Below, piece after piece: positions 19,822 to 40,825 of a DNA stretch of 64,000 nucleotides. Positions within the stretch are counted from its first letter, which is position 1; each line of letters starts with the position of its first letter. Source of the DNA: Bdellovibrionota bacterium. GTDB taxonomy: Bacteria; Bdellovibrionota_C; UBA2361; JAAYZI01. The translations under genes were made by a program, and so were the position numbers. The notes beneath the pieces were generated by a model, which searched no databases, was not told the origin of the DNA, and saw only the letters and a program-made list of their open reading frames with translations. The stretch covers positions 160,001 to 224,000 of the forward strand of contig JBMNIF010000001.1 of NCBI GenBank assembly GCA_050950765.1, read 5' to 3'.

Positions 19822-19888
19822 TTCAAATCCCCTTAAAAAACGAATAATGGCAGATCTGGCTGCAGGGTTTAGTCGGCTTTGTAGCTGG

Positions 19889-20338: not shown

Positions 20339-20360
20339 TGACAGTTCCTGCATGTAGTTA

Positions 20361-22643
20361 TTACCTCTTTAATAAATCGCTTAGTCCAGCTAATGGGGTA
20401 TTTTTAAAGGTTCCCTGTGGGGGAGTGCGCTTTTTTGGTTTTTGCAACTGTTTTGTTAGTGTGTAGTTACTACCGTCATTGCTTTCTTTCTTCATGCTTA
20501 AGGCGATTTGTCGTTTATCCGTATCTACGTTAACTACTCTAACTGTTACACGGTCTCCTGGATTAACTACGGTACGCGGATCTTTTACAAAGTTGTCACT
20601 TAATTGAGAGACGTGCACTAAACCGTCCTGATGTACGCCAATATCAACAAAAGCTCCAAAATTCGCAACATTAGTCACAATACCAGGGCAACTCATGCCG
20701 ATTTTAAGGTCAGATAGTTCGTGGATATCTTCCCTGAAAGAAAATGCTACAAAGGTTTCTCGTGGATCCCTTCCTGGTTTTTCAAGCTCTTTAATAATAT
20801 CAGCACTCGTAAACTCACCGAGATCATTTTTAAAGATGCTATCTTTTTTTAGTAGGGCAGCACCAACGCCGATTAAATCACTTACTGTCTTGTTTAAACG
20901 TTCTGCCGTGATTCTTAACGCTTCATACCTTTCTGGGTGTACACCAGTATTATCTAAGGGATTTTCAGATTCCGGAATCCTTAAAAATCCGGCAGCTTGC
21001 TCGAAAGCTTTTCCGCTAAAACGTGGGACCGATAGTAAGTCTTGCCTAGATTTAAAAAGCCCTACATTTGTACGATACTCTACTATTGATTTTGCTAAGC
21101 TCGGTCCAATGCCCGAAACGTAAGTTAAAAGATGTTCCGATGCTGTGTTTAAATTAACTCCGACGGAGTTTACCGCAGATTCAACGACACGGGTTAATCC
21201 TTGCTTAAGAGCGGATTGTGATACGTCGTGTTGATATTGACCAACGCCGATACTTTTTGGATCCACCTTTACCAATTCTGCCAGTGGGTCTTGTAAACGA
21301 CGAGCGATGGAGATGGCGCCGCGTACTGTCAGATCTAAGTCAGGGAATTCTTGTCTTGCAACTTCACTAGCGCTGTAAATACTAGCCCCTGCTTCACTAA
21401 TAACTACAACTGGAATGTTTTGTTTTAACTCCGTAAGTACTTTACGAATAAAAGTTTCGGCTTCTCTGGATCCTGTGCCGTTCCCTATGGCAATGGCACG
21501 CAGAGCTGATTTTTCAATTAAATTTTTTATTAGCCCCTTTGCTTGTGTCTGCATGCCGTCATTTTCGATATGTATTACTCCGCTAGCAATATATTTACCT
21601 GTTTGATCTACCAAAGCTAATTTACAGCCAGTTCTTATGCCGGGATCTACACCTAAAACTGTTTTTGATCCAAACGGCGCTGCTAACAAAACCTTTCTGA
21701 CGTTTTCTGCAAAAACGGCAATAGCAGCTTCATCTGCTACCTGTTTAAGTTTGGTATGAATCTCTGCTGAAATTGTAGATAAAACATAATATTTAAAAGA
21801 GAGACGCGCTGCATTAAGCAAAATTTTTGCAGCTGTAGAATCCCTAGCAGTACAAGCTTCCGATTCATAACGTGCTTGGAGTCTATCCATTAAGTCTGGT
21901 GTAGAACCTGTAATGGTTAAAGTAAGTTCGCCCTCTTCTTCGCCGCGGCGTAATGCTAAATAACGGTGAGAGTTTTCCGGTTTTAAAAGTGATGAAATAT
22001 TTTCTGTGAATTCAAAATAATTTTCGAATTTGCTGTTTGGTTTCGGGTTCTTTCCTTTTTCGGAGGTAATGGCACCTTCTTTTAATAAAGATTCTCTCAC
22101 TAATTGACGTAATTCCATCAATTCAGTTAGTCGTTCTACAATAATGGCTTGTGCACCATCAAGGGCACCTTTGGTGTCATTGATATTCATCTCAGTGTTG
22201 ATAAAATCTGAAGCTTTTGTCTCTGCTGTAATATCAGTCGTTAAACCGTGCCCAACCTGCCAAAGCCAATCTGCCAAAGGCTCTAATCCAGCATCTCGTG
22301 CTACGGCGGCTTTTGTTTTGCGTTTTCGTTTATAAGGAAGGTAGATATCCTCAAGGGTGTTTAGTTCAAAACACTTCTCGATACTGTGTCGCAATTCCGG
22401 AGTTAATTTATTTTGTGCTTCGATCTCTCCGATAATAAATGCCTTACGTTTTTCTATTTCGTCCCATAGATTTTTTGCTTTGATGATAGTTTCAATTTCG
22501 ACCTCATCCAAACCTCCTGTCTGTTCTTTTCTATAACGAGCAATAAAGGGAATCGTACAGCCTTCTGCTGTTAATCGTAAAACAGCGTCGGCTCCTGCTA
22601 GGGGAATATTACTAAAGTTAGATCTAAACCAATCAACAAACAT
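20361..22643 (-). CDS. tex: Tex family RNA-binding transcriptional accessory protein
   Basis: TIPFIARYRKE, LEDIYLPYK, GVDPGIRTGCK, DPKSIGVGQYQHDV, C-terminal S1 domain. Confidence 0.96.
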   Translation of the reverse strand: MFVDWFRSNFSNIPLAGADAVLRLTAEGCTIPFIARYRKEQTGGLDEVEIETIIKAKNLWDEIEKRKAFIIGEIEAQNKLTPELRHSIEKCFELNTLEDIYLPYKRKRKTKAAVARDAGLEPLADWLWQVGHGLTTDITAETKASDFINTEMNINDTKGALDGAQAIIVERLTELMELRQLVRESLLKEGAITSEKGKNPKPNSKFENYFEFTENISSLLKPENSHRYLALRRGEEEGELTLTITGSTPDLMDRLQARYESEACTARDSTAAKILLNAARLSFKYYVLSTISAEIHTKLKQVADEAAIAVFAENVRKVLLAAPFGSKTVLGVDPGIRTGCKLALVDQTGKYIASGVIHIENDGMQTQAKGLIKNLIEKSALRAIAIGNGTGSREAETFIRKVLTELKQNIPVVVISEAGASIYSASEVARQEFPDLDLTVRGAISIARRLQDPLAELVKVDPKSIGVGQYQHDVSQSALKQGLTRVVESAVNSVGVNLNTASEHLLTYVSGIGPSLAKSIVEYRTNVGLFKSRQDLLSVPRFSGKAFEQAAGFLRIPESENPLDNTGVHPERYEALRITAERLNKTVSDLIGVGAALLKKDSIFKNDLGEFTSADIIKELEKPGRDPRETFVAFSFREDIHELSDLKIGMSCPGIVTNVANFGAFVDIGVHQDGLVHVSQLSDNFVKDPRTVVNPGDRVTVRVVNVDTDKRQIALSMKKESNDGSNYTLTKQLQKPKKRTPPQGTFKNTPLAGLSDLLKR

Positions 22644-22776
22644 ATAACCGTTTCATTTATAAATAAAAAAATAACAAACTGCGCAGAGAGGTGTTAGAGA
22701 TACCCCAATTAAAAGCGTCTGTCGACATTTTTTAAGATTAAAATCAGAGTAATTATTATTGATAAAAAGAACGTAA

Positions 22777-23967
22777 TTATGTTGTTAGTATTTTGCTATC
22801 TATTCTGTCATATAAGCTGTTTAAGTCACGTTGAAAGATCTCAAAAGTGTAACGTTCTTCGGCAAGTTCGTGTGCGGCATTCCCTATTTTATGGCGCAGA
22901 TCTGGATCTGAAATTAATTTTTTTAATCCTTGCGCATAGCTATCGGGTGTGGGATCTGTGAGGATTGAAACGGTGTTGTTTAAAACCTGTGTGTGCGTTG
23001 GAAGATTTGTCGCAATGATTGCTTTACCGGAATGTAGATATGAATATATTTTCATGGGAGTGTTGTTCCCACGTAGTCTGGGAGAAGCTAAAATGTCAGC
23101 TTGAAGGAGGTAGCTTTTTAAACGATTGACAGCTCTACGTCCTGCAAGGTGTGCTCTATCTGAAAGATTTAATGCTGAAATCTTTGTTTTCCCTGCTGAG
23201 ATATGTTCATCACTACCACCAATAATAACGAGATGTGCTTTATCAAAGGAGTGCGCAATTTTTGCAAAAGCATCAATCAAAAGACCGCAGCCCTGATAAG
23301 GTTCAAGGTTCCCGACATATAGAATAACCAAAGAATCAGGGGGGATGTTTAATTCTTCTCTAAGCGTCTGCTGTGAAGTTGTTTGAGAATTATCTAATCC
23401 AAGGAGAGATATGTCTCGTAAGATCTGAGTGTCCTGTGAACCCTGATTGTAGGCAATGGCAGCGAGAGCATCGCAAACAGGAACTACTGCCATACTGTGT
23501 TTAATGGCTCGTCCTTCAAGAAAAGAGAGTAGCGGGAGAAAAGGACGAAAAATGCGCCATTTTTCAGTTAATTGTTGTGCTATTGATGAATCCATGTCGT
23601 AGATATACGGAATTTTCCAAAATACTTTGATTAGCATTGCAATGAAAACAGATTCTTCTACGGCATGAACTAAGTCATAAGGATTTTTTCTATTTTTCCA
23701 AACTAGCTTCAAAGCAGTAAATAAAAAAATGATATCGCAAAAGAGTTTTTTAACGGAGATACCAGGGGCGATATTGTTTAGAAAAAAAGGTGCTTTGATC
23801 CGTATATGATTAACATTCGGTATGCTTATGTCAGTCCCTTCGTGATATGTTAAAAGATCGATAGAGTCTTCTTTTCTTGTGGCAAGAACTTGAACTGCTA
23901 ATCTAACAGCTATCGGAGTGCCACGGTCTTGAAAAAACGGTTGTGGTGCTAAAAATAAAATACGCAT
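22777..23967 (-). CDS. Glycosyltransferase family 4; likely start MRILFLAPQPFF at 23967
   Basis: GT-B motifs LYVGNLEPYQG, ADILASPR, PMKIYSY. The ORF-track N-terminal extension runs through repeat DNA. Confidence 0.9.
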   Translation of the reverse strand: MRILFLAPQPFFQDRGTPIAVRLAVQVLATRKEDSIDLLTYHEGTDISIPNVNHIRIKAPFFLNNIAPGISVKKLFCDIIFLFTALKLVWKNRKNPYDLVHAVEESVFIAMLIKVFWKIPYIYDMDSSIAQQLTEKWRIFRPFLPLLSFLEGRAIKHSMAVVPVCDALAAIAYNQGSQDTQILRDISLLGLDNSQTTSQQTLREELNIPPDSLVILYVGNLEPYQGCGLLIDAFAKIAHSFDKAHLVIIGGSDEHISAGKTKISALNLSDRAHLAGRRAVNRLKSYLLQADILASPRLRGNNTPMKIYSYLHSGKAIIATNLPTHTQVLNNTVSILTDPTPDSYAQGLKKLISDPDLRHKIGNAAHELAEERYTFEIFQRDLNSLYDRIDSKILTT

Positions 23968-23997
23968 AGCATGGGATGATAAAACAAAAATTGTAAA

Positions 23998-24067
23998 AAG
24001 GACACCCGACTTGTCCCTGGTGCCACCCACCAGCGCTAAGCCCTTGTCACTGGTGCCACCCACCAGT
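23998..24067. repeat. Repeat array 4: two hairpin-form cores downstream of the RAYT gene
   Basis: CTGGTG-CCACC-CACCAG at 24017-24033 and ACTGGTG-CCACC-CACCAGT at 24049-24067, preceded by GGACACCC. Confidence 0.9.
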
Positions 24068-24278
24068 ACGACCTGCTTTGCTGTTTTTGCTCTTCTGACA
24101 GCCTTTTTTCTGCTTATGCCACTGCCAGCAAGCTTAGTTCACCTTAAATTTCCTTAAATTTGATACTACAACTTACTATTAATTGACTATTTTCAGATTT
24201 TAGATAGATCTTCCCTGTTGAAATTTAGATTTCATATTATTAACGGGTCAAAAAAGCAGCTTTTTTACATTACTTTTT

Positions 24279-25247
24279 TCAGGTCGCCACCCCGCAAAGC
24301 CTACCTACAATAGGCATACTCGGACGAAATGCCCCATAAACAAACTTGGCTGAAATATCACCTTGCTTCCACTTCTTCCAAGCCTTTCTACACTCTTCAC
24401 AAAAAGCCTTATATTCTGCTATCGCCTTTATCCGTAACTCCTTAATCCAACAAATTAAATACGGCGTACGTGTCTTCTTCTTAGGTACATACGCAATATT
24501 TATCGATTGCTGCTGCACTTTACGCATCCCCATAAAATGCCCCTTCCTTTCAAGTGCAATCTCTTCTTCCCTTTTTGAAATCTCTGTCATTATTGTTTTA
24601 AAGATCTCTTCAGACGTAAGGTTTTTTGATTCTTCAAAACAATTCTTCCAAGCATCAGGGGTAATCTTAAGCTCATGACAAGTGTGCGGAAACATATTAA
24701 GCATTTTTAATAAAATAGCATCGCTTATTTTATGAAGTCTCTGCGGTAACTTACGTAAATTAGTAGAAGAGGTATACTTACCCTGCACTGTTAAAGAACC
24801 TGATTTATACATTCTAAAACTACTACACCCTTCCCAATCAGCAGCGTGTGCAACGAGTCCTGCTTTTACAGGATTTATATAAATATAGACTATCTTATCG
24901 ATAACATCATTATGAGTTACCAAACGTTGCTCCTTAAAACGTCCATCCCAAACGTTTCTCCTATATTGCGGTGTTAGTTTCTTAATAGCACGTGCAACTG
25001 CACTTTCCATCTCTCCCATAAATGCAGAGATGTGCTTTCCTTCACCAACTAATATCATGTGAAAGTGGTTACTCATCCAATTAAAATGAGCAATTCTAAC
25101 ACGATGGTGCTCTTGGCAACGTGCCATAATCCCTAACAGGATCCATTTCATAAAAAGGCGTGCTAGAAATGGCAAGCCAGATAATGTTCTATTGGTGACA
25201 TGTACCACCATTTTATTAGGATTTCTCCTATCTCTACGATTTCTCAT
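24279..25247 (-). CDS. REP-associated-type tyrosine transposase (RAYT / TnpA-REP, Y1 HUH endonuclease) with C-terminal extension
   Basis: HVTNR, MSNHFH (HUH), VWDGRF, YIYINPVKAGLV...W..SS; no tnpB beside it; flanked by short palindromic repeats. Confidence 0.88.
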   Translation of the reverse strand: MRNRRDRRNPNKMVVHVTNRTLSGLPFLARLFMKWILLGIMARCQEHHRVRIAHFNWMSNHFHMILVGEGKHISAFMGEMESAVARAIKKLTPQYRRNVWDGRFKEQRLVTHNDVIDKIVYIYINPVKAGLVAHAADWEGCSSFRMYKSGSLTVQGKYTSSTNLRKLPQRLHKISDAILLKMLNMFPHTCHELKITPDAWKNCFEESKNLTSEEIFKTIMTEISKREEEIALERKGHFMGMRKVQQQSINIAYVPKKKTRTPYLICWIKELRIKAIAEYKAFCEECRKAWKKWKQGDISAKFVYGAFRPSMPIVGRLCGVAT

Positions 25248-25396
25248 AAGACAACTCCAGAAAAAAAATAAAAATAATTAATAAATTGGCAGAATTGCCG
25301 GTTAGCTTGGCAGGATTGCCAAATTCTAACGCCTAATTGTCGCTAGAGTTGGGATTTTATTGTGGGTAAAAATGAAAAAAGTTTGGAGATTGGGAT

Positions 25397-25872
25397 TGGT
25401 GCCACCCTTTAGTGCGAGGATGGTGTTAGAAAAAGAAAAGAAGGGTGGCACCAGTTTTACCCCCGTGAAGACCTAGCTGATCCGTTTTACAGTTCCAGCC
25501 CGTCCGATTGTCCCTGAAGGGTGGCACCAGTGACAAGCCTGCAACAATTGCTGATTTAAGGGCAAAAAGAAGGGTGGCACCAGTTTTTTAACCCCCGTGA
25601 AGACCTAGCTGATCCGTTTTGCAGTCCCAGCCCGTTCAGTTGTCCCTGAAGGGTGGCACCAGTGACAAGCCTGCAATAATTGCTGATTTAAGGGCAAAAA
25701 GAAGGGTGGCACCAGTTTTTTAACCCCCGTGAAGACCTAGCTGACTCTGTTTTCAGTTACAGCCCGTTCGGTTGTCCCTGAAGGGTGGCACCAGTTTTTA
25801 CCCCCGTGAAGAGCTAGCTGATCCGTTTTGCAGTCCCAGCCCGTCCGGTCGTCCCTGAAGGGTGGCACCAGT
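25397..25872. repeat. Repeat array 5: inverted core pair followed by an A-B'-A-B'-A-A tandem array
   Basis: GGTGCCACCC at 25398, then GGGTGGCACC at 25443, 25519, 25572, 25651, 25704, 25783, 25860. Confidence 0.96.
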
Positions 25873-25883
25873 GCTAACCTCGT

Positions 25884-26960
25884 TTAATAGATAACAGGTG
25901 TTGTGATTCTCGGGGGGTTATTGCCGTATCTTGTGATGGTTGCTTGCATAAAGTAAGAAGCTTGGTTCGGATATGCAACGCGGGCGATAACTTCATAGGT
26001 GTTATTGCTCGTGCTGTTTGTAGTAATGATGCTCTTTAGTTCATTCTGTTGTTCTTTTGCAACTTCTGTAAGGTTGAAGAATTCATTTATATCATTAAAT
26101 TTTCCGTTTTCACGGCTATTTCGTTCTTCTATAATCCTTTCAGCGGTGTCTTCGTCAATTTTATCGTCTAGCGCCATCAGAATTTCTTTTGGGGCAATGT
26201 TAACGTCGATTTTGCCACTTCCTCTTGTTGTAATAAATGGCACAAGTAGGCGTAAGCGTTGTGGAGTAAAGCCTGGAATGTTTGAAAGCTCTTCACGTTC
26301 AATAATACTGGCGTAATCGTTTTTAAATTCACTACCCTCAGGCAAGGTATCTTCACATCCTTTTACGATGACGCCGTTTATAGTATCACTGAAAGATGTT
26401 TTATCTATATCCAAGTAATCTATTAAATTCCCCAACATCTCTTCTGGAGTGAAAACTTTATTCCCACATAAACCAGAAGGATTTTTTTCTTCTATGGCAC
26501 CGAGATCAAGAATTGTGAAAAGTCGTAAACATACCTCTCGTAACTTCGTAATTGTGTTGGAAACGGTCGTATTATTTTCAACTCTATGAATTGGAAAACT
26601 ACCCGTTATTGGTGTAATTTGAAGCGCTATTCTGGCACCTTCATTAGGATCCACTCCAAAAAATCCTAAAAATTCAGGAGGGATTTCTAGCCCGTCTTTA
26701 AACGGCTCCCAAGCTTCTGTATTGATAATATCTTGACTATTTGTGTTTTTGCCAACCTGAATCAAGCTAGCAGCATAGTTTGTCAGAGATTTGAGAATGT
26801 ATTCCGCTTTTAGACGATTTTTAATTACACCTATTGATTCAGCTTGTAAAAATGTTGAATGCGCCAAGCTTGTCACAAGAATTGTGGCAAAAGCTAAAAA
26901 CATAATGACCAGCAGTAAGACAACAGCGTTTTCTCCCTTTTGTTGATTGCGGTGTGTCAT
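25884..26960 (-). CDS. gspK: Type II secretion minor pseudopilin GspK-like protein
   Basis: Prepilin-like QQKG followed by a hydrophobic segment; LIDYLDID, ELSNIPGFT...LVPFIT, GKIDVNIAPKEILMAL. Confidence 0.8.
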   Translation of the reverse strand: MTHRNQQKGENAVVLLLVIMFLAFATILVTSLAHSTFLQAESIGVIKNRLKAEYILKSLTNYAASLIQVGKNTNSQDIINTEAWEPFKDGLEIPPEFLGFFGVDPNEGARIALQITPITGSFPIHRVENNTTVSNTITKLREVCLRLFTILDLGAIEEKNPSGLCGNKVFTPEEMLGNLIDYLDIDKTSFSDTINGVIVKGCEDTLPEGSEFKNDYASIIEREELSNIPGFTPQRLRLLVPFITTRGSGKIDVNIAPKEILMALDDKIDEDTAERIIEERNSRENGKFNDINEFFNLTEVAKEQQNELKSIITTNSTSNNTYEVIARVAYPNQASYFMQATITRYGNNPPRITTPVIY

Positions 26961-27154
26961 TCTTTCCTTATCTCCTTAATCGAGATGATAGATATTTTTA
27001 CAAAGAATAACCACTCCTTTCATCTCCTGACTTCTGAGTTTTTTGTCTAAAATTATTTTTTTAAGGAGTTAACTTATTAAAAAATAATGAGAAGTTTTGA
27101 AAAACATTAAAAATGCCTAAAATATTTTCATATAATGCTATCCACCAGTAGGCT

Positions 27155-27175
27155 AAAAGCAGGTGCCACCCATCA
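27155..27175. repeat. Isolated core; left copy of a 21-bp direct repeat
   Basis: AAAAGCAGGTGCCACCCATCA; matches 31871-31891 at 20 of 21 positions. Confidence 0.9.
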
Positions 27176-28315
27176 AATTTGATCTATAAAGGAGCAAATG
27201 GTTTCAACATCTTGGTTGTCTGTATAATAATGCGGTGAAAATCTAAACACAAACTTACTTCCATTATCTGGGAAAAAAATCGGACAATCCCAATCACATA
27301 CTAAAGAAACAACAATACTTTCTGTTTCCAATGCTGTTTTTATTTCCACTTCTTTTGAAGGGTCTTTTAAGTAAAATGACGCAATTCCAGACCTTGATTT
27401 TTCTTTACCGAATAGATAAATATTCTGATTCCTCATAATTGCATCTCGTATTTTGTTGGCCTTTCGTTCAATTTCTAGCGAGGCTTTCTCCACTCCATAT
27501 TCTAAATATTCATTGATTGCATTTCCTAATCCTAATAATGAAGCAATACTTTTTTCCCAAAGTTCAAACTGTTTTGCATCATCACGAACTTTCACTCCTT
27601 TAACATCGCCATTACTATCAAAAATTAGATCAGCAGATGCTAAATCAATCTGTGGTGTATAAATATTTGCACCATCCTTGACATATAGAATTCCTGTCCC
27701 TCGTGGTCCGCGTAGCCATTTTCTCCCAGCTGCAACATATGCATCACAGTTTATTTCTTTCATATTCGCGACTATTTGCCCAACAGCTTGGCAACCATCA
27801 ACAATATAGGTAGCGCCATATTTTCTAGCCATTTTCCCCATTTCTACCACTGGATTAACGATTGATCCTTGTGCTGCAACATGGCTAACAGCTAAAATTG
27901 TTCCTCCTCCTCGCAATGCACTTTCTAAGTTTTCTAATGAAAAATCCCCATTCGGCTTGCACGGAATCACATTCACTGAGCAGCCAGTTTTTTTTGCAAT
28001 ATCAAATATTGTTAATAAGTTTGTACCATACTCACTTGACAACGTAACAATCTTATCGCATGCACTTATTTTTATTCCATACATGATTAGATTCCAGCCA
28101 CGACTTGCGCTATCAACAAATGCTATTTCACTTTTATTATCTGCATTAAGCATTTTGGCTGATAATTCGTAAAATTTGTTTACATCTTCCTGCTTATCAA
28201 TTGCAGCTTTATATGCGCCAATCTTCATTTCAAGTTTCATGTGGTCCACAACAGTATTAAATGTTCCATTACTCATTAATCCTGCTCCGGCATTATCAAA
28301 ATACAGTGTTTTCAT
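27173..28315 (-). CDS. PLP-dependent aminotransferase class V / cysteine desulfurase-like enzyme
   Basis: YFDNAGAG, DGCQAVGQ, AGRKWLRGPRGTG (PLP lysine), RFSPHYY. Confidence 0.9.
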   Translation of the reverse strand: MKTLYFDNAGAGLMSNGTFNTVVDHMKLEMKIGAYKAAIDKQEDVNKFYELSAKMLNADNKSEIAFVDSASRGWNLIMYGIKISACDKIVTLSSEYGTNLLTIFDIAKKTGCSVNVIPCKPNGDFSLENLESALRGGGTILAVSHVAAQGSIVNPVVEMGKMARKYGATYIVDGCQAVGQIVANMKEINCDAYVAAGRKWLRGPRGTGILYVKDGANIYTPQIDLASADLIFDSNGDVKGVKVRDDAKQFELWEKSIASLLGLGNAINEYLEYGVEKASLEIERKANKIRDAIMRNQNIYLFGKEKSRSGIASFYLKDPSKEVEIKTALETESIVVSLVCDWDCPIFFPDNGSKFVFRFSPHYYTDNQDVETICSFIDQI

Positions 28316-28326
28316 TATTTATCCTC

Positions 28327-28545
28327 TCAACTTTCTGCAACAAATTTTGCAATAGCAACCCCCAGTTCTCTCAAATTCCAAACTGTCGGATTTGAATCAT
28401 TATCGGTTATCATGCCTCGCAATTCTAAATCCCTCACAGTGTTACGCAGCTCAATCTCTGGCACAGCAACCATTTCCGAAATCTTTATCGCCGAAAGAGA
28501 GTCGTTGTTCTTATATATTGCGGATAGAATTTGAAGTTGTATAAA
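28327..28545 (-). pseudogene. 3' remnant of a gene (winged-helix-like) truncated by the IS1634-type element
   Basis: Open frame FIQLQILSAIYKNNDSLSAIKISEMVAVPEIELRNTVRDLELRGMI...WNLRELGVAIAKFVAES* starts at the IS end and stops just before the aminotransferase RBS. Confidence 0.6.
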
Positions 28546-29348
28546 GTCCTAAATTCCCGTTTTTTTATAGTCTACACCTTAGTATTTAATATTTTATCGA
28601 CAAAAATCTTCTGGTCAATTTCTAATGCTTCTAAAATATCTTTTTGTTTTTTTGTTAATGGCTGTAGTAGCATGCTCAGATTTTCATTATCTATGCGTCT
28701 TATCATTTTAAGCGTTTCTAAAACTCTCTGAATGGTTTTTTCTACTTTTTTGTTATTATTATTTATAGTTCTTTGTAGGTCTGACCACATAATTAAGCTA
28801 AGAAAGGAAACGAAGCTTTTGCCGTCAGTAGTTTTTTCATTATGTGTTAGCATACGGTCATTATCCAATTCATTTTTTAAATTATCGAAAGCTTTCTCAA
28901 TAAAGTCTCGTCGTGAATAGATATGAAGTGCTTCTTGTGGTGTCATTGTTGAGTGGTTACTCAAAAAAGCAAAAACTCCTAGCATAGATAAGATATCGGT
29001 AATTTTTTCATGATCTCTTTCAAAACTTTCTAACTGCACTTCTTTCTTAGTTTTTATTTTGTAGTATTTAGAGTAGCGACTCATACTCATAGGCTTTTTC
29101 ATTTCTTTTAGTTCATCTTCTAATCTGTCAATATGAGAGTAAAGAGTGCTCTCTTCCTCAGATGCACTTTTTGTATTTAAGTAAACGTAGAGAGAAAATT
29201 TTTCTCCATTTATCACAATATCTTTTCTTACCCCATAACAATTTGTCCCAGATATGTGATTCCTAGAAGAGCGAAGAGTAACAGATACTTCCCTCATAGT
29301 GTTCTGCCTCTGATGGAAATGGACTTTTGTCATGCCACAAAACCCTAG

Positions 29349-30311
29349 TTAACACACCTGAGCTTGTTGTTCAATGTTGTAGTTAGTAAGAGAGGGGTAC
29401 CCCTCTCTTACTAACTTGCGATGTGCTCTAGCAGCTTCCAATTTGCTGTCTCGAGCTCTAAATATCTCCTCTTGCTTGTTATTCAATCTATCATTTGGTG
29501 TTATATAACCTAGCGCACAATGTAACCGCTGATTGTTATATTCTTCGACAAACTTACTCACTATAGTTTTCGCATCATCAAGTGATACTGGAGTGTTAGG
29601 TCGTATCGCTTCTACTTTTAATGTCCCATTAAATCTCTCCATCTTACCGTTCGATTGTGGATAGAACGGTGATGTCTTGACGTGAGTCATACCAGATATC
29701 TTTATAAAATTCTTAAACTCTTTTGAAATATAGGCTGAACCGTTATCTGAAATAATTCGCGGTCTTGCGTCTGGAAAACTTTCTCTAGCCTTTTGTAATA
29801 CTACTTCAATATCTATTTCTTTCATCGATTCTCTAATGTCCCATGCAACTAAATACCGACTACATCCATCCAAAACTCCAATAAAATAGTAAAATGTGCC
29901 ACAAATATTGATATATGAAACATCCGTATGCCAATGTTCATGCGGGTTAAGTGGTTGTTCAAATCCTGTCCCTTTCTTGCTTTTTAAACCATTCCAGCAA
30001 CGCATTAAGCCAGCACTTTTCAATACTCTATAGGTCGTCGCAGGGGATACTGCCACAACATCTGCGTCAAGCATCATGTATGTTAATGCTCGATAACCTA
30101 CTCTTGAGTGCTCTAAATAATACTTAATAATAGCCTCCCTTTCACTGGGTAATAGCCAGTAATCTCTCGGAATTAGCCCGTTATGAAAGTTCTCTTTACC
30201 GTAATGTTTTTCCCAAGCATAGTACTTGCTCCGTGTTATCCCTAACCTCTTTATAAACATCTCCCGCTTCATTTCTGATTTCTCTTGCCATTCATGTACA
30301 AAATCTATCAC
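29349..30311 (-). CDS. IS3 transposase OrfB
   Basis: Protein identical to 15233-16195. Confidence 0.95.
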   Translation of the reverse strand: MIDFVHEWQEKSEMKREMFIKRLGITRSKYYAWEKHYGKENFHNGLIPRDYWLLPSEREAIIKYYLEHSRVGYRALTYMMLDADVVAVSPATTYRVLKSAGLMRCWNGLKSKKGTGFEQPLNPHEHWHTDVSYINICGTFYYFIGVLDGCSRYLVAWDIRESMKEIDIEVVLQKARESFPDARPRIISDNGSAYISKEFKNFIKISGMTHVKTSPFYPQSNGKMERFNGTLKVEAIRPNTPVSLDDAKTIVSKFVEEYNNQRLHCALGYITPNDRLNNKQEEIFRARDSKLEAARAHRKLVREGYPSLTNYNIEQQAQVC

Positions 30312-30346
30312 CTCATCTCGTATTTGTGGCTCAACCCAACGCTTCG

Positions 30347-30652
30347 TTAAAGCTCCCCAAGCTTTTTTTTTAAATCTATATGAAGCCCCAAAAGCTCCGC
30401 TAGCGCAGAATCCTTCTTCGTTAGCTTCTTCTCCAAAATATCTATCCGTTCAGCTTGCTTCTTTTCTTCTTTCCTACCATTTTTATTCCGCTCAAAAATT
30501 TGGATAGCTCCCTCAAATAATAGCTTCTGCCATTCATAAAATGTACTAATGTGTACGCCGTATTTATCGCATAAACTCGATAACGGCTTATTTCCTAATA
30601 AATGCTCCTTCAGTATCTTAACCTTATCTTCTGCACTAAAATGTTTTCCCAT
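30347..30652 (-). CDS. IS3 transposase OrfA
   Basis: Protein identical to 14892-15197. Confidence 0.92.
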   Translation of the reverse strand: MGKHFSAEDKVKILKEHLLGNKPLSSLCDKYGVHISTFYEWQKLLFEGAIQIFERNKNGRKEEKKQAERIDILEKKLTKKDSALAELLGLHIDLKKKLGEL

Positions 30653-31870
30653 TATTCACCCCATTAGTTAATATCACTCAGGCTATTATAGTAGCTTTTT
30701 TCAGCACCTCAAATGTCCATTTCACGCTGAACCAGCACAATAGTATCGTTGTAATTTTTCTGAGATTTAGGAACAGCTACGAGAAATTCTATTTGCTCTT
30801 TTTTTATATATTCTAAATTTTCTTTTGTAATAAAACCTCTATCCAGAACATAAAATATATCATCAATACCTAAGTTTTTAGAGTATTCCATCATTGTTGT
30901 AAGAAAAACTTTATCAACAACACTTCCACTGTAAAGAAAAAAACTTATTGGTAAATTGCTATCGGTAGCGTATAAAAGCCCGACATTTAGTTGTGGTAAA
31001 TATTCTTTGTCTCTATTGTATCCATTCTCGGCAAGTGGCAAGTCTGCATAAGTAGAAAGGCTCGTAACATCATAAGCTACAGTCTCATTGTTTTTCATAG
31101 CATGGTTTTTCCACACAGAAAAAAACTTCATTTGATCTTGTTTGGTAATCGATGAAAAAAGCTCACTTGTCTTTTGCGAGGATAGAGATATGTTTTTAGG
31201 GGTAAGAGTATTTTGCAAAAAATTATCTATATTCATCATTACATTGCCTTCGCAAGCCATGTATAACGCAGTATAAAAGATATCTTCGTATTTATCGGGA
31301 AAGATTGTTTTTAAGCATTTTAATAACCCTATAGCCTTAGCTCTCATTTTTAATGCGACTACGTGACCTGCGTCCCAAACAAAGCGAGAAGAAGCTAGAT
31401 CAATAACGTCAGATGGCATTGGATAATATTTTTTAAAGTTCTCATTAGGAATCATTCTTCCTTGTCTATCAGGGTCTATCTTTCCCACAATCACTTCATC
31501 ACAAGTAGGTGTGCCGTTCTTATTACGACGATGACCAAGTACGTGATACACATACTTTACGTTTCCTTTGCTATCTTTTTTATACGAAATCTTTTTTTCT
31601 GGAATTGGAATTGAAATATTTATTAAAGCCATTTTGTCTCCTATTTTTTACTGTCCCGTAGACTACGGAAACATGTCTACAGAACAAAAAATGTCAATGG
31701 TTTTTTAAAACTTTCATAAAAACTTAATTAAATAAATATGTTGGAGGAAATATAATATTAGAAAATCTAAATATGAAATTAAATTATTGATATGGACTAC
31801 ATAAAAAACGGGAATTTAGGTCGTTATTGTGGACGAAAAATTTTTTAGGTGCTTCAAGTGCGAAGTCGGG

Positions 31871-31891
31871 AAAAGTAGGTGCCACCCATCA
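31871..31891. repeat. Isolated core; right copy of the 21-bp direct repeat
   Basis: AAAAGTAGGTGCCACCCATCA. Confidence 0.9.
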
Positions 31892-31914
31892 CCTAGAAGC
31901 AAGGTTAAAAATAT

Positions 31915-31955
31915 AAAAAAAGGGCAGCACGTATTTTTTGTTTACGTACCGCCCT
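31915..31955 (-). terminator. Intrinsic terminator after the 32018-32350 gene
   Basis: Minus-strand RNA AGGGCGGUACGUA-loop-UACGUGCUGCCCU forms a 13-bp stem (two G-U pairs) followed by a U tract. Confidence 0.8.
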
Positions 31956-32017
31956 CTACATTCTATCACATAATTATATCTGCAAAGGTAATAAAAGCTC
32001 AATAAAACAGGGGTGTT

Positions 32018-32350
32018 TTAGCAGAAGGTATAATCTTCTTCCTCTTGGAAATCTGAATTAGCTGAAAGAGAACTCAAGATAGAACGTGCATCGTCACGAA
32101 TCAGGGAAGAGAGGCTGTTAATCAGAGAAACATGTCTATTAACTTCGTCCCACTCCTGTCTGTTGATGTGCACGCACAGTTCGCCTGCCAAATTGCGCTG
32201 CTTTTGTAAGATCTCATCATAAGAGTTTAACCGTTCTATTACTGCTAAAGCAGGATTCCCATTCTTTAGCAAAGTTGTTTTTGCACCGTTAATAGCGCTT
32301 TCTAATTCGGTAAGGGATTGAAATAATCTGTCTATAATATTTTTTTGCAT
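32018..32350 (-). CDS. Hypothetical helical/coiled-coil protein
   Basis: 110-aa ORF with amphipathic helices, GGTGGA RBS-like sequence and a downstream terminator. Confidence 0.75.
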   Translation of the reverse strand: MQKNIIDRLFQSLTELESAINGAKTTLLKNGNPALAVIERLNSYDEILQKQRNLAGELCVHINRQEWDEVNRHVSLINSLSSLIRDDARSILSSLSANSDFQEEEDYTFC

Positions 32351-32782
32351 AATCCACCCACAGTTAATTATCTTATAATCTTTTAGCTCAGTACTAATAA
32401 TTTTAAAAACTAAAGTCTAATCTAACAGCAGCGACTGACAATCCCTTGTCGAATCCTCAAAAAATAAAGCGTTGTTTGTTCTGCGAATATCTAAGCAACG
32501 CTAAATATTTAATGAGGAATGCTATCCATTGCGTGCGGTCTCGGAGTCATTTCAAAAAGCAAAAACTAGACCAAAACGTAACAGCTTGAATTCTTATCTC
32601 TAAGAGTATAAAGGTTGGAGCTTTTTAGACAATGGATATTTAAAATTTATTTTAGTATCCTGTAAAAACGGGGACTTGGCGGGGTGTCGTATCGATATAC
32701 ATAGTGTCGTTCTTTCAAACACCTGCCGACTTTAGCTATGTTGCTTATATCGGTGATGTTATCGGAAAATAAAAGCAATAAA

Positions 32783-34135
32783 ATGGGTAAAAAAGAGCAG
32801 ATCTTAGATAAATTGATGGCTATTAAAGCAGAAGGCGGGTGCCATCGCTGTGGAACTTGTGTCGGAGTCTGCCCGAGCGCAGCTCTTGGAATCGATTCAG
32901 ATTGTTATCCGCAGATAAAAGACAGGAGCGCTTGTATCGGTTGTGGCAAGTGCTTAAAAGTCTGTCCTAGCTCTGATTTTGATTGTAATGCTTTTACGCA
33001 AAAAAAACACGAATATGATTTTAACCTTACACACGGTTTTTTTGATTCTGCTATACTTGCGCATGCTACAAATAAAGTTATCAGAGAAACAGGATCTAGT
33101 GGTGGATTTGTTACGCAGATACTATTGTCTTTATTAAATAGTGGTGAAATAGATGGCGCTTTAGTTGTGGGTAATCGAGAGAACGAAGAGCAGATCTGGA
33201 GTGGCAAGCCGCAAATCGCTAGAACAGCAGATCAGATTATCGCAGCAGCGCAATCAAAATACACCATTGCATCGACTAATTCTGTTCTTTCTGAGATTAT
33301 TAAAGTTGATGGTAGGTATGCTGCGGTCGGATTACCATGTCAGATTCAAGGGATAAAAAAAGCGATCTCTCTTGATAAGCGTCTAGCAGAAAGGATCGTG
33401 CTGACCATAGGGCTTTTTTGTCATTCTACATTAACTCCCGAAGCTTATAAAAGTGTCTGGGATATTTTAAAAATAGATGAAGCTCATCGTTTCATCCCAA
33501 GACTGGGGAAGCACCCTGGTACGCCGTATCTTGAAATGATTAATGGTGAAAAAAAACCGTTATATTTCCCCGAAAAAAAAGGATTTCGTCCTAATTCCAC
33601 AGAGATGTTAAATGTCTTGTTTAGACTTTATACACAACAGCGCTGTTTCTTATGTCACGATGCCCTCTCAGAGTTTGCTGATATTTCAGTAGGAGATCCC
33701 TATCTGCCGGAACCGCAAGGAGTTTCTTTAAAAGATGGTTGGAGCTTTGCTTTAATTAGATCAGAACTCGGACGTAAAGCTTTAGATCTGTCACTGCAGC
33801 GAGGAGATATCGTTATAAAAGAGCTTAGCCAAGCTGAAGCATTAAAATGTAATGCTGTCATGATACGTGAGAAAAAGGATAGAGCTTATTATCAAATTAG
33901 GAAGAATCGGAGTGTTGGGAAGTTTTCACCAATCTATACGCAATCAGAAACAGATATCCCTTGTCTAAATAGAACTCAGAAAATAAAAGTAAAATTAAAT
34001 CTTTTGTCACATTGGTTTTGTGTGCGTCCTGCTGGAAGAGATCGCGCGCTACGTTTCTTTTTGGGGAATGTTGGCTATCAATTTTTAAAATTGAACCATT
34101 ATAGAAAAACTTTTGTTAAAAAATTTAAACGATAA
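32783..34135 (+). CDS. Coenzyme F420 hydrogenase/dehydrogenase beta-subunit (FrhB/FdhB) family protein with 2x[4Fe-4S] ferredoxin domain
   Basis: Two CxxCxxCxxxCP motifs, SSGGFVT, AQSKY, VGLPCQ, GLFCH, RCFLC..ADISVGD. Start uncertain (32738-32783). Confidence 0.88.
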   Translation: MGKKEQILDKLMAIKAEGGCHRCGTCVGVCPSAALGIDSDCYPQIKDRSACIGCGKCLKVCPSSDFDCNAFTQKKHEYDFNLTHGFFDSAILAHATNKVIRETGSSGGFVTQILLSLLNSGEIDGALVVGNRENEEQIWSGKPQIARTADQIIAAAQSKYTIASTNSVLSEIIKVDGRYAAVGLPCQIQGIKKAISLDKRLAERIVLTIGLFCHSTLTPEAYKSVWDILKIDEAHRFIPRLGKHPGTPYLEMINGEKKPLYFPEKKGFRPNSTEMLNVLFRLYTQQRCFLCHDALSEFADISVGDPYLPEPQGVSLKDGWSFALIRSELGRKALDLSLQRGDIVIKELSQAEALKCNAVMIREKKDRAYYQIRKNRSVGKFSPIYTQSETDIPCLNRTQKIKVKLNLLSHWFCVRPAGRDRALRFFLGNVGYQFLKLNHYRKTFVKKFKR

Positions 34136-34999: not shown

Positions 35000-35238
35000 T
35001 TTGCTAATATATTGATATTATTAAGTTGCTGTAAACTTAAAGTTTGAATGCCTTAATTGTAAAGCGTTCAGCGCTGAAGGGCGGCACTTTTTACCTTCGT
35101 AAAAATCTAGCTAATTCGCTTTGCAGTTGCACCCCTTTTAACTGTTCTTAGAGGGTGGTGTTTCTACCTCCGTTAAAATCTAACCAATTCGTTTTTTAGT
35201 TGTAGCCCCTCAATCGTCATTGGTGGGTGGCACCAGAG
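35000..35238. repeat. Repeat array 6 (degenerate module C plus two module A units, GGGTGGCACC orientation)
   Basis: Cores at 35079 (variant), 35153 (variant) and 35225. Confidence 0.85.
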
Positions 35239-36384
35239 TTACAGGTTTTGCAATAGTTTCTTTGCCGTTCTTTCCCAAGTGAATTTTTGCAGAACCAGCT
35301 CTTTAAGCTTTTTTATAGCTGTAATCTTATTTTTATTGTTTATAGCCTTTTTTAATCCAGCATAGATGCTTTCTTGTGTATTGTCATTCAACACAATCCC
35401 GTAAGTATCATCTAAAATTAGATCTTCAACATTACAAGCTTTTGTACAAACTACATAGCTTTCACAGATTGCAGCCTCTAATAAAACACTAGCAAACCCT
35501 TCAGAGTCACTGGGAAGACAAAAAATATCTGTCTGATGTTGTAAAATAATACATTCTTCAAAAGAAAGTGACCCTAATACAATTATATTTTTATTGGCTT
35601 TTGCTTTTATCGTAGGATATAGAACGCCATCTCCGGCGATAAAAAGAAAAATATTTTTATTTTCTTCACTTAATTTCTGGAAAGCTGCTAACAATTGAAG
35701 AATCCCCTTAAATTTAAACAATCTCCCGATAAAACTTATTACTATTGCTTCTTTAGGAAGATGAAATTCGTCTCTAAAATTTCTTTTTCTTTTTGTTAAT
35801 ATATCTTCGATAGCATGACTATCAACGCAGTTTGGTAGTACACCCTGTCCCGTAATAGCAAAATGGTTCAACCATCTTTTCCCACCCGCAGAAACCGCAC
35901 AGAAATTTTTACAGTAGCGTTTAAGTAAAGAGGTAATGCAGTGTTCGTAAAGATTAGTAGCAAGATCCAGTAAGCGATTATTAAATGTTAAATGCGCTGA
36001 TCCGTGTTCTATCACTAGGCATTTAATGTTGTTTTTATAAGCTAAATAAGCCATAAGCAATGATTGTAAATAAAATCTGCAATTAATGACCATTGAATCA
36101 AAGCGAGCATCTTTTATCTGCTTTATCAATAGAAAAGATTTTGCACACGGATAAGGGATCGGGAAACGACCATGTATTAACATCAAACTTTTTAAACGGT
36201 AAAAAGAGATATCTTTATCTTTTTCATCAAGAGAATAGTTATCACAATTCGTTGTGACAACAGTAATGTGATGTCCCATTTTTGTTAATTCAGAAGCTAT
36301 GGATTGAGAATATTTACCAACTCCTCCTGTATATGGAGGATAATGTACAGTTGATATGCAGATCTTTTTCCTATCTTTTTTCAC
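35239..36384 (-). CDS. Glycosyltransferase family 4
   Basis: YPPYTGGVGKY, FIGRLFKFKG, DIFCLPSDSEGFASVLLEA. Confidence 0.92.
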   Translation of the reverse strand: MKKDRKKICISTVHYPPYTGGVGKYSQSIASELTKMGHHITVVTTNCDNYSLDEKDKDISFYRLKSLMLIHGRFPIPYPCAKSFLLIKQIKDARFDSMVINCRFYLQSLLMAYLAYKNNIKCLVIEHGSAHLTFNNRLLDLATNLYEHCITSLLKRYCKNFCAVSAGGKRWLNHFAITGQGVLPNCVDSHAIEDILTKRKRNFRDEFHLPKEAIVISFIGRLFKFKGILQLLAAFQKLSEENKNIFLFIAGDGVLYPTIKAKANKNIIVLGSLSFEECIILQHQTDIFCLPSDSEGFASVLLEAAICESYVVCTKACNVEDLILDDTYGIVLNDNTQESIYAGLKKAINNKNKITAIKKLKELVLQKFTWERTAKKLLQNL

Positions 36385-36561
36385 AAATTACGGCACTATT
36401 AAAATTATGCAGTATGTATAAAATTACTTTTCTTTTTCATCAAAATTACATTTTTTTAGTAAACTTACTAGCTAAAGAATATTTTCATTATGATTATTCG
36501 TGCCAGAGGCTAATTTCGTTAACAATTTCAATATGGCAATTGGCAAGAGCATGGGCATCCT

Positions 36562-36722
36562 TGAAGGGTGGCACTTTTTACCTTCGTAAAAATCTAGCTA
36601 ATTCGCTTTGCAGTTGCACCCCTTTTAACTGTTCTTAGAGGGTGGTGTTTCTACCTTCGTTAAAATCTAGCTAATTCGCTTTGCAGTTGCAGCCCGCTCA
36701 ATTGTCACTGAAGGGTGGCGTT
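36562..36722. repeat. Repeat array 7 (two module A units)
   Basis: 36562-36669 matches 35075-35182 with 2 mismatches in 108 bp. Confidence 0.88.
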
Positions 36723-36725
36723 AAG

Positions 36726-37145
36726 TTACCAGTTATGTTGCCATGAAATAGTGATGGAAAGATTGTGAGTTTTTGAATCTATTGTAACTATATTTATGGC
36801 GTTGCTGGAGTCTACTTTGTCTATTGTAAAAGAAGTTGGATGCGGATCTACTTCGTAGATAGCAAGGCGATAGAAATTTTTTGTACTTTCATCAAGGACG
36901 TTTTTTTCTTGAAGCTTAGCAAATAAACTTTTGTCGAGTAAGGTAGATGAAGGTGTCTCTGTTTTCGCATCACCTTTCATTACTACTGATGCAAGGAGAG
37001 AGTCCGCTTTCTGTTCTGATTTTTTAACGGTCAGTATATTGTCAAAATTAAGTGCATCCGAAGTAGCAAAGGTATCTGTGACAAATAACAGTAAAACCAT
37101 TAATGTAAAAAAAGTCGACGTGAACAGTATGCTTAAACACCTCAT
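36726..37145 (-). CDS. Hypothetical exported protein
   Basis: Signal-peptide-like MRCLSILFTSTFFTLMVLLLFVTDTFA from ATG 37145; C-terminal aromatic residue. Confidence 0.55.
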   Translation of the reverse strand: MRCLSILFTSTFFTLMVLLLFVTDTFATSDALNFDNILTVKKSEQKADSLLASVVMKGDAKTETPSSTLLDKSLFAKLQEKNVLDESTKNFYRLAIYEVDPHPTSFTIDKVDSSNAINIVTIDSKTHNLSITISWQHNW

Positions 37146-37403
37146 AGCTTTCACTCCTACCGACAACACTACAAGCAAAAGAGTAAGATCTACTTCCCTC
37201 AATGAGCGGAACAGCCGCTTTAAAACCTCGTCAATTATTGCTTTGTACTTGATGTTTTGGCGTGTTTTTTAGAGGTAGAAAAGAATGTGCCAAGCGATGA
37301 AATGGTAATTTTGTAATAAAACTAAGATCTTATCTTAGAAAGAGCTAAGATATTTTTTAAGAAAAAGCACCTAACTTCCGAGCTCAAATACTACTAGGCT
37401 AGC

Positions 37404-37889
37404 TAGAGGGTGGCATTTTTAACCCCCGTCAAAATCTAGCTGATTCGTTTTGCAGTCGCAGCCTGTTCAATCGTCCCTGAAGGGTGGCACCAGTGACAGC
37501 CAGCTACAAAGAAGGGTGGCACCAGATCTGCCGAATTTTGGATTTTTGCTAATGTCTTGATATTATTAGATGTTATGATTTTGAAGTTTGGATGTCCTAT
37601 TTACGAAGCGTCTGCAACGCTGAAGGGTGGCACCAAATTTTATCCCGTCTTAGTGAAGGGTGGCACCAGTGACAGCCAGCTACAAAGAAGGGTGGCACCA
37701 GATCTGTCGAATTTTGGATTTTTGCTAATGTCTTGATATTATTAGATGTTATGATTTTGAAGTTTGGATGTCCTATTTGCAAAGCGTCTGCAACGCTGAA
37801 GGGTGGCACCAAATTTTTGACCTTCGTGAAAACTTAACCAATTCGCTTTTCAATATCAGCCCGCTCTGTTGTCCTTAGAAGGTGGCAAA
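37404..37889. repeat. Repeat array 8 (A-B-C-x-B-C-A)
   Basis: Cores at 37408 (variant), 37482, 37514, 37625, 37658, 37690, 37801, 37880 (variant); internal duplication with 176-bp period. Confidence 0.95.
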
Positions 37890-37901
37890 TTTCTCAAAAA
37901 A

Positions 37902-39851
37902 TTATTCATACCTTAAAGCATCAATCGGTTTTAAGCGAGCAGCTTTTAAAGCAGGATAGACACCAAAAAAGATTCCAACAGCGAATGAGAATCCAAGAGC
38001 CATAAAAACTGATTCCGGTGTAACGTAAGTTGCCCAATTTTTATAGTATGACAACGCTAAACTGGCACCCCAACCACAAGCCACACCGATTATGCCGCCA
38101 CAAGTGCTGATTAGGAATGATTCTATTAAAAATTGCATTAGGATATCACGTCTCCTAGCACCTATTGATTTACGAATGCCTATTTCGCGAGTTCGTTCCG
38201 TCACGGAAACAAGCATGATGTTCATAATGCCGATACCACCGACTAATAAAGAGATACCTGCGATAGAAGCAATTAACATTGACATGGTGCTACCCGTAGA
38301 AGTCATCATGTCTTGTATCTCTGCCATGTTGCGAATTAAAAAAGCATCCTCAATCTGAGAAGGTGGAACTTTATGACGTTTTATGAGTAGCTGCCTTATA
38401 CTTTCTTCAATGGAGAACATATCAGCAGCAGTAGACATTTCAACGTCTATTAAATCGATATAATTTTTCCCGAAAAGACGACGCATGGCAGTGGTGTAAG
38501 GGATAATCACAATATCATCCTGATCCATAGGACCCGATGAGCCTTTTTCCGGTAGAACTCCGATCACACGAAAGTTAATGCGATTAATTTTAATGGTGGC
38601 ACCAACCGGATTCTTGGTTCCAAACAACTCTCTAACTACGGTTACTCCAAGTAAAGCGACAGTGTCGCGTTGATCCACTTCCTGTTGATTAAAGAACCTG
38701 CCGATAGTTGGTGTGGCTGCTTTAATCTCTTCATAATCAACAGAGGTGCCTGTGATGGATGAGTTGCGATTGTTGTTTAAGTAAACCACTTGAGCATTTT
38801 GCCTGACTGATGGCGCAGCGTTTTTTACACCACTAATCTGTTTTTTAATGGCATTAACATCATCCATCGTCAGCTGAGTGACTAAGCCACTCTCGAGAGC
38901 AACACCCCCACTTTTAAAAGCTCCCGAACGAACCATTAAAAGGTTAGAACCCATCTTTGAAATCTGTTTCTCTATGGATTTTTGCGCACCTCGTCCGATG
39001 GCAAGCATCGCTACAACTGCAGCAACTCCGATTAAAATTCCCAACATAGAAAGGAAAGCGCGGATCTTATTAGCTCGAATTGATCGAATCCCCTGCCTAA
39101 AATGTTCCGATAATTCAGCTAAAAATGAGGGATGATGCGACTTTGCAGGTGAGGCGGAGTGCTTTTCTATTTGAGGTAACTGACCAAACTCTTCATCAGA
39201 AATGATCTTGCCGTCACGCATTCTGATAATGCGTCTGGCTTCCTTACCGATCTCTTCATTGTGCGTTACGATAACAACAGTAATACCTTGAGTGTTCAGA
39301 TCTTTTAATAAATTTATAATCTCACGTTCACTGGCAGAATCTAAATTACCGGTTGGTTCATCAGCAAGAATTAGAGTGGGAGTGTTGATAAGTGCTCGCG
39401 CTATTGCAACGCGTTGTTGTTGTCCACCGGATAGCTCTGTTGGACGATGTGTAGTGCGTTCCCCCATCCCGACCAAGTTTAACAGTTTGATGGCGTTAGT
39501 ACGTTCTTTTAAACGACCAGAATAGACAAGGGGGAGTTCTACGTTCTCTTTAGCGTTTAATCGCGGTAGTAAATTAAATTGTTGGAAGATAAAGCCGATT
39601 GTATCTCTTCTTAATTCTGCTAACTTGTCTTCATCGTAACTCTTAATCTCTTTGCCATTAAGGATATATTCCCCCGTGTCTGCGTGATCTAATAACCCTA
39701 TGACATTCATTAAGGTGGATTTGCCAGAACCTGAAGGTCCCATAATAGCGAGAAACTCACCATCCCTGATGGTTAAGGAGACGTCATCCAGCGCATGAAC
39801 ATCATTATCTCCGAGGTGGTAAGTTTTTTTTAAGTGTCGAAGTTCTAACAT
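37902..39851 (-). CDS. macB: MacB-family ABC exporter (ATPase plus permease)
   Basis: [56 protein letters not shown]. Confidence 0.93.
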
Positions 39852-39862
39852 AAGATAGTACT

Positions 39863-40822: not shown

Positions 40823-40825
40823 GGT

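Follow-up and report, generated by a model that had tools for sequence, protein, structure and literature searches.

How did a gene whose closest full-length relatives belong to another bacterial group come to lie between two nearly identical 21-bp repeats, with its stop codon inside one of them? This question is raised by the block at 27155-31891 of a 64-kb stretch of DNA (hereafter the window, meaning the whole stretch that was analysed) from the 2.64-Mb genome (G000) of an uncultured Bdellovibrionota bacterium. Between the two 21-mers lie a class V aminotransferase gene, a truncated gene upstream of it and nested insertion sequence (IS) elements, all of them as listed by an earlier, sequence-only reading of this DNA. 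That reading had gone on to propose an att-like integration, in which the repeat supplied the stop codon of the captured gene and the repeat system might acquire coding cassettes in an integron-like way. On comparing strains, homologues and IS copies, we favour, with some reserve, an explanation by ordinary IS activity and short-overlap recombination rather than by a new gene-capture system.

The sister repeats and the alleles of two strains

The 21-mers share the form AAAAG(C/T)AGGTGCCACCCATCA, with C in the left copy and T in the right one (31871-31891). The pair itself is beyond question, as both sites match the degenerate pattern AAAAGYAGGTGCCACCCATCA with 0 mismatches (expected 0.00 from 100 shuffles) and the two copies are identical at 20/21 positions, their likeness ending at about 21-25 bp. 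Both belong to a genomic family of repeats with the core GGTG[C/G]CACC, and both carry a G at -3 (5% of the 986 cores in the genome), an A at -1 (2%) and CATCA 3' of the core (8/986). Because these rare variants are common to both, the 21-mers are clearly sister copies and not a chance pair of family members; sibling copies 'AAAAGCAGGTGCCACCC' are present at three other loci. The right 21-mer likely extends into a full hairpin with a 6-bp stem and an 8-nt loop, and the left one is without the 3' hairpin arm because the aminotransferase sequence begins there. Folded as 51-nt stretches on both strands, the surroundings of the two 21-mers gave -2.1 to -3.7 kcal/mol (z -0.13 to 0.41), no better than shuffles. 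The 21-mers had also been described as the only isolated cores, which was too narrow: solitary cores, lying >300 bp from any other, make up 4/53 in the window (27162, 31878, 35226 and 38595, the last of which looks like a chance match) and 54/986 genome-wide. Furthermore, an orientation opposite to the neighbouring arrays holds for the nearest ones (25444-25861 and 35226-43000) and fails for the cores at 17236-24052 and 25398, which are oriented like the 21-mers.

The site of the block was assessed by comparing gene order near gspK across 20 relatives. A homologue of the 110-aa gene at the right of the block lies directly upstream of gspK on the same strand in 15/20, with gaps of ~35-530 bp between the aligned parts; the two homologues are on different contigs in G009 and G010, and G001 and G016 were not judgeable. 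In the window, this gap measures 5,057 bp, and from the gene order the block is an insertion into a conserved 110-aa/gspK pair. In G012 (L047, G012:C65:2800-6900, 1173-3431), the pair is separated by three genes, encoding a TPM-domain protein, LemA and a 161-aa open reading frame (ORF), and thus the same spacer took up DNA in another lineage.

The stretch is present in sequencing runs of 12 studies, covering bioreactors, digesters, landfill and wastewater. Logan contigs of four runs (X1, X7, X13 and X14) were aligned to 26000-33000 of the window. The aminotransferase is carried by X1, X7 and X13, the first two of which also show the window's left junction and the IS junction. X14 contains the organism at ~9.5x depth and ~99% identity with no cover of 27176-28339. 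One of its contigs matches 26000-27175 and then continues into 445 nt unlike the window. Another (contig 21) covers 31821-31921, which takes in the right 21-mer with the 50-bp spacer before it and 30 bp after it, and is preceded by 61 nt of non-IS sequence. A 30-mer taken from the X14 letters before 31821 has 0 matches in G000 at up to 3 mismatches. Both 21-mers are therefore present in a strain without the aminotransferase. The strain difference ends on the left at 27175/27176, precisely where the left 21-mer stops; contig 21 places its right end at the IS end, 31820/31821, which is 50 bp short of the right 21-mer.

These alleles bear directly on the proposed att-like integration, in which the insertion itself would have made the repeat pair. 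The pair exists in X14 without the gene; a contig joining 27175 to 31892, as an empty site with a single 21-mer would give, was sought in the four runs and none was found. The expectation that empty alleles break at the 21-mer is thus borne out on the left, to the base, and fails on the right, where X14 breaks at 31821. As a separate observation, the X14 contig with 31821-31921 has a depth of 20.2, compared with 9.6 in its neighbours, and other contigs diverge at 31923 and 31939; this unit may be duplicated in the strain or common to another locus.

The foreign fragment, its stop codon and its IS border

The DNA of the aminotransferase was sought in 91 genomes of the order and found in only two, G000 and G008, the latter being a Bdellovibrionota metagenome-assembled genome from another family. 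Protein matches in the other relatives do not exceed 34% identity. A donor search, as had been proposed, returned as the closest full-length relatives proteins of 379-381 aa with 63-66% identity from Clostridia, namely Lachnoclostridium, Eubacterium, Acutalibacter and Catenibacillus, in agreement with the earlier description of the block as foreign. In those genomes, the gene is the second in a conserved four-gene Clostridia operon (L026 3348-8103; L025 3108-8102), which encodes a winged-helix protein of 216-296 aa, the aminotransferase, a 348-aa protein with no Pfam match and a 634-aa protein with DIT1_PvcA and GNAT domains; the winged-helix gene ends 0-3 nt before the aminotransferase. The truncated gene of the window corresponds to this first protein, its 72 codons matching residues 143-211 of the 216-aa winged-helix protein of L026 (59% identity, E 1e-27). 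The window therefore holds a 1.38-kb piece of the operon, made up of the last third of the winged-helix gene and the aminotransferase, and received nothing else of it. By these matches, the aminotransferase block is foreign and horizontally acquired, and the habitat of bioreactors, digesters, landfill and wastewater is common to the host and Clostridia.

Base composition gives no foreign signal, with GC 0.357 and GC at third codon positions 0.244 for the aminotransferase, compared with 0.381 and 0.32 for gspK and a GC of 0.387 for the window. No plasmid matched 27100-28545 by blastn, and viral contigs scanned with the 3' end of the aminotransferase gave 0 matches. Protein families were assigned with Pfam and NCBIfam, Pfam being run on the 11 ORFs of 22.8-35 kb; all NCBIfam matches of the aminotransferase are far under their cut-offs, and a cluster look-up of the protein returned 5 members.

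As had been noted, the left 21-mer closes with the TGA of the aminotransferase (27173-27175). The further claim, that the repeat supplies this stop, does not survive comparison with the homologues. Among 60 aligned homologues, 59 stop at the column where ...FIDQI ends, whereas the remaining one is a single residue longer, so that an extension past this point, which had been suggested as a check, is absent from nearly all of them. What G008 retains of the gene is its final 479 bp, at 97% nucleotide identity; this copy ends ...ATTTGATGG, followed by unrelated sequence, with homology stopping at window 27170 (TGATGG|). TGATGG is thus present there without the repeat, and G008 has 0 copies of the repeat 11-mer. 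Taken together, the shared end column and the G008 copy show that the TGA is native to the gene, the aminotransferase's own stop. Moreover, a stop triplet at the same offset occurs in 536 genomic repeat copies, of which 4 close an ORF of at least 100 codons, the three besides the aminotransferase measuring 108-126 codons; the supply of stops is no property of the repeat family. Since native homology extends to 27175 and foreign homology, as judged from G008, to 27170, the two overlap by 6 bp, CCATCA. The stop seems to be owned by the repeat because gene and repeat both already carried this hexamer, the gene as its stop plus three bases and the repeat as its 3' flank.

On its other side, the foreign fragment borders an IS1634-family element, whose transposase halves score 102.9 and 122.1 bits against NF033559 (cut-off 100). 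This copy is without a target duplication, its two flanks reading ATAAAGT and TCGTTAT, whereas the other IS1634-type copies of the genome have perfect 7-bp duplications in 5/5 cases (TAACTGT, TCACCAT, TAGATTA, AAAGTTT and TATTTTT). The present flanks were therefore not neighbours at the time of insertion, and the lost duplication marks a rearrangement at the window IS. In an alignment of the six copies with 64 variable columns, the window copy is the most divergent, with 7 private substitutions. Nested in it is an IS3-family element with four other genomic copies at 99.6-100%; contigs of all four runs join 29295 to 30740. Near the end of its orfB, a perfect 36-bp palindrome (29381-29416, 18 + 18 without spacer) is present in every copy.

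Table 1. Position of the block, its parts and its neighbours within the window.
Feature	Position	Strand	Remarks
RAYT-like Y1 (HUH) transposase gene	24279-25247	-	PF01797, E 1e-6; flanked by repeat cores
Nearest repeat array	25389-25875	-	132-nt period (25455-25850); directly downstream of gspK
GspK-like minor pseudopilin gene	25884-26960	-	PF03934; NF037980 80.5 bits, under the cut-off of 130; in 20/20 relatives
Left 21-mer	27155-27175	+	solitary truncated REP-like copy; its final 6 bases, CCATCA (27170-27175), double as the end of the foreign fragment
Class V aminotransferase / cysteine-desulfurase-like gene	27173-28315	-	intact, 380 aa; PF00266, E 2e-44
3' fragment of winged-helix gene	28327-28547	-	72 codons (28330-28545) plus stop; truncated by IS
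IS1634-family element	28548-31820	-	transposase in two halves (30709-31632, 28572-29333); terminal inverted repeats CCTAAATTCCCG...
IS3-family element	29300-30739	-	nested in the IS1634-type element; orfA 30347-30652, orfB 29349-30311; Pfam HTH_Tnp_1, rve, rve_3
Spacer, IS end to right 21-mer	31821-31870		50 bp; common to the X14 strain, which is without the aminotransferase and without that IS copy
Right 21-mer with likely full hairpin	31871-31895	+	TAGGTG-CCACCCAT-CACCTA (31876-31895)
Strong hairpin with U run, terminator-like	31908-31964	-	-25.4 kcal/mol, z -5.46; just downstream of the 110-aa gene
110-aa gene	32018-32350	-	no family match; conserved upstream partner of gspK; in 19/20 relatives
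RAYT, REP-associated tyrosine transposase; REP, repetitive extragenic palindromic.

How the block may have formed

From these end points we infer the following order of events and recombination pathway. Natively, two sister REP-like copies would have stood in the spacer that separates gspK from the 110-aa gene, and an IS1634-type copy would have sat at TCGTTAT. A foreign fragment, in which such an IS had interrupted the upstream gene, may then have taken the place of the DNA from the IS to the left repeat, its far side joining the left repeat within the 6-bp overlap CCATCA (TGATGG on the gene strand), and the IS3-family element would have struck the IS1634-type element later. Likely, the exchange combined illegitimate joining at microhomology on one side with an IS-based event on the other. 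The latter would have been either homology-facilitated illegitimate recombination, with the exchange inside an IS copy common to both partners, or a deletion next to the IS; if an insertion had preceded it, such a deletion accounts for the IS side just as well. Weighing all the evidence, we regard this combination of IS activity and short-overlap joining as somewhat more probable than all its competitors together.

Several points weigh against it. The allele without the aminotransferase comes from Logan contigs of one run, and in it the two 21-mers could enclose a different foreign insert. No closer relative is available to show the ancestral spacer, the sole genome of the same family (G001) being fragmentary, and scans of metagenome contigs added no further alleles: an exact scan with a 29-mer across the left junction gave 0 matches, and a scan guided by GspK gave 153 pattern matches with no relative among them. 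A mosaic test on the six-copy IS alignment revealed no clear switch point that would prove a crossover in the window IS. In G008, the junction falls 0-109 bp after TGATGG, as judged against its congener G041 at 62-71% identity; if it lay exactly at TGATGG, two independent junctions would share an end point, and chance microhomology would become a poorer explanation than a cleavage site or a defined end of an element. Finally, it is still striking that an insertion should be flanked by two solitary sister copies of a rare variant.

In a site-specific capture, the core would be an att-like site at which the RAYT-like Y1 transposase, or a recombinase since deleted by the IS, integrated the block into a single repeat copy and left one copy on each side. 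The direct 20/21 repeats would fit, flanking as they do an insertion in a conserved gene pair, and so would the left boundary, where foreign and native DNA meet within 6 bp at the repeat edge; on the right, however, the boundary is the IS end and not the 21-mer, and X14 has both 21-mers without the aminotransferase and without a 27175-31892 joint. The lost target duplication implies that DNA was lost or exchanged, so that a recombinase gene could have gone with it, yet the only relevant families in the 11 ORFs are rve (IS3), DDE_Tnp_1 (IS1634-type) and Y1_Tnp, and no integrase family is among them. The Y1 transposase gene lies 2 kb off, and in IS200/IS605-type elements both end hairpins have the same orientation; of the present pair, the left copy is without its 3' arm and neither 21-mer folds better than shuffles. 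With a native stop and no other real gene ending in a repeat copy, we consider such a capture unlikely.

Equally unlikely, in our estimate, is the reverse order, in which the foreign DNA came first and a single master copy later seeded the 21-mers on either side, or gene conversion made them alike. With 986 cores and arrays in most long spacers, the family is highly mobile or expanding, and sibling copies are present at three other loci. REP-type repeats tend to settle just 3' of genes, and each 21-mer indeed follows a gene or a terminator-like hairpin at a distance of a few bases to a few dozen. But the X14 strain already has the left copy by gspK and the right copy by the 110-aa gene, the truncation of the left copy coincides exactly with the start of the foreign DNA, and with 54/986 cores solitary, seeding of single copies is rare.

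Still more doubtful is a delivery by the IS itself, with the IS1634-type element bringing the winged-helix fragment and aminotransferase as a unit (composite, or with a surrogate end past the stop) and the repeats as bystanders. The foreign fragment directly adjoins the IS end, and the window IS, with its private substitutions, is the most divergent of the six; no 7-bp duplication surrounds the putative unit, though, TCGTTAT is not repeated near 27155-27175, and 27170-27200 holds no IS-end-like sequence. The aminotransferase remnant of G008 is also fused to an IS, of which 741 bp are 89% identical to an element with 10 copies at >99.6% in G000. At this locus (L021, G008:C12, 9990-11207), IS and aminotransferase are both truncated and fused at internal points, between an aminoacyl-tRNA synthetase-like gene and secG, where the congener G041 has about 380 bp; the IS is a different element, and joining at internal points of both partners indicates a deletion there. 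The two genomes, from different families of one order, share this IS as a 1.83-kb element (for example, G000 C2:37812-39642). As improbable as IS delivery is the idea that repeat copies serve as favoured sites of breakage and joining, where the six-copy RAYT-like transposase perhaps makes nicks, so that same-orientation pairs in a spacer mark a slot in which foreign DNA is swapped among strains. In that case, the X14 strain would hold a different insert between the same 21-mers, and a true cleavage site would lie at TGATGG, the end point common to G000 and G008.

Had the integron-like idea held, a REP-type family would have emerged as an integrase-free gene-capture platform, a new kind of mobile-DNA system. 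As it stands, the locus illustrates a common trap: among ~1000 repeat copies, direct repeats that flank an island, and even a stop codon inside one of them, can arise without any att-site chemistry. It is useful as a well-documented case in which an uncultured Bdellovibrionota bacterium from digester-type habitats acquired part of a Clostridia operon, with a junction mapped to a 6-bp overlap and a strain polymorphism that can be checked in public data. Some interest remains in the exact coincidence of the junction with the repeat edge and in the unusual repeat system.

The repeat system, its neighbourhood and known counterparts

The family has the consensus ..AAAA(A/T)(C/T)T-GGTGCCACC-C(T/A)(T/C)CAG. 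Its 986 genomic cores compare with about 6.4 expected from composition, and 53 of them are in the window. The 11-mer TGGTGCCACCC, counted in G000 and 40 relatives, occurs 943 times in G000, 0-37 times in the relatives and 0 times in G008. Arrays occupy most long spacers of the genome, and the copies stand chiefly in same-orientation arrays; in the window, array regions extend over 24005-25880, 17236-20323, 37483-43000 and 56435-57046. The Y1 gene is ~2 kb from the left 21-mer and has cores at 24019/24052 and from 25398 on. The best NCBIfam match of its ORF is NF047646, 'REP-associated tyrosine transposase' (E 1e-18, 67.4 bits, below the cut-off of 80), and it is one of six near-identical genomic copies of 322-350 aa. 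CACCAG-type copies at 24005-24070 form hairpins with 6-7 bp stems (z -2.8 and -3.5); hairpins are confined to this type, and most copies, as well as the 132-nt array unit, form no stable hairpin. Because the best model of the Y1 ORF is a RAYT, and because it is present in six copies and flanked by hairpin-forming repeats, the repeat system is REP/RAYT-like, albeit atypical. The earlier remark that no tyrosine integrase is in view holds insofar as no phage-integrase family occurs among the 11 ORFs, and has to be amended by this Y1/HUH tyrosine transposase, which nothing ties to the block.

Two observations concern neighbouring genes. A glycosyltransferase ORF at 22777-24063 has its listed GTG start (24063) inside two repeat hairpins (24010-24066), and its true start is probably further downstream. 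In relatives, the 110-aa gene and gspK are close enough for co-transcription, and in the window the terminator-like hairpin now stands between the 110-aa gene and the insert; expression of gspK may thus be rewired. The hairpin came from folding, and a simple terminator scan made no calls at 31780-32060 or 26940-27220.

With REP/RAYT systems, the locus shares a short GC-rich repeat that is extragenic and hugely over-represented, and a Y1/HUH transposase gene flanked by hairpin-forming copies. Its solitary copies look like decayed remnants, reminiscent of the REP singlets described in PMC3337134. The same paper portrays REPINs as inverted doublets and RAYT genes as about 500 bp long, and PMC5581495 has RAYTs as single-copy genes. 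In contrast, the arrays here are single-orientation without the inverted-doublet REPIN layout, and the Y1 gene has six copies, encodes 322-350 aa and scores under the model's cut-off. The IS elements conform to the IS1634 and IS3 families in their transposases, terminal inverted repeats and nested insertion, and the five other IS1634-type copies in their 7-bp duplication; the window copy departs from its family in that it is without a duplication and bounds foreign DNA.

The inferred joining also has a counterpart. Homology-facilitated illegitimate recombination with joints of 3-10 bp is documented in natural transformation, according to a passage of PMC6382021 that cites de Vries and Wackernagel 2002. 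As in that process, a repeated element would have served as the anchor (here the IS without target duplication), and the 6-bp overlap is inside the range given in that passage. The difference is that the event at this locus is reconstructed from end points in three sequence sets.

An integron cassette comes to mind since a single gene is bounded a few bases past its stop and next to a repeated element. Unlike in integrons, no IntI-type integrase was found by Pfam among the 11 ORFs, neither 21-mer has an attC-like imperfect palindrome, and part of a second gene travels along; furthermore, and in this the block differs from an att-flanked island as well, the repeat pair exists in X14 without the gene and the right boundary is away from the repeat. 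With no integrase among the 11 ORFs, no folding attC, no single-copy empty site in the four runs and only the left boundary at a repeat, the proposed integron-like acquisition of cassettes by the repeat system is not supported, and the likeness to an att-flanked island or an integron cassette is superficial. The parts are instead of known kinds, namely atypical REP/RAYT-like repeats, IS1634 and IS3 elements, and a horizontally acquired gene fragment.

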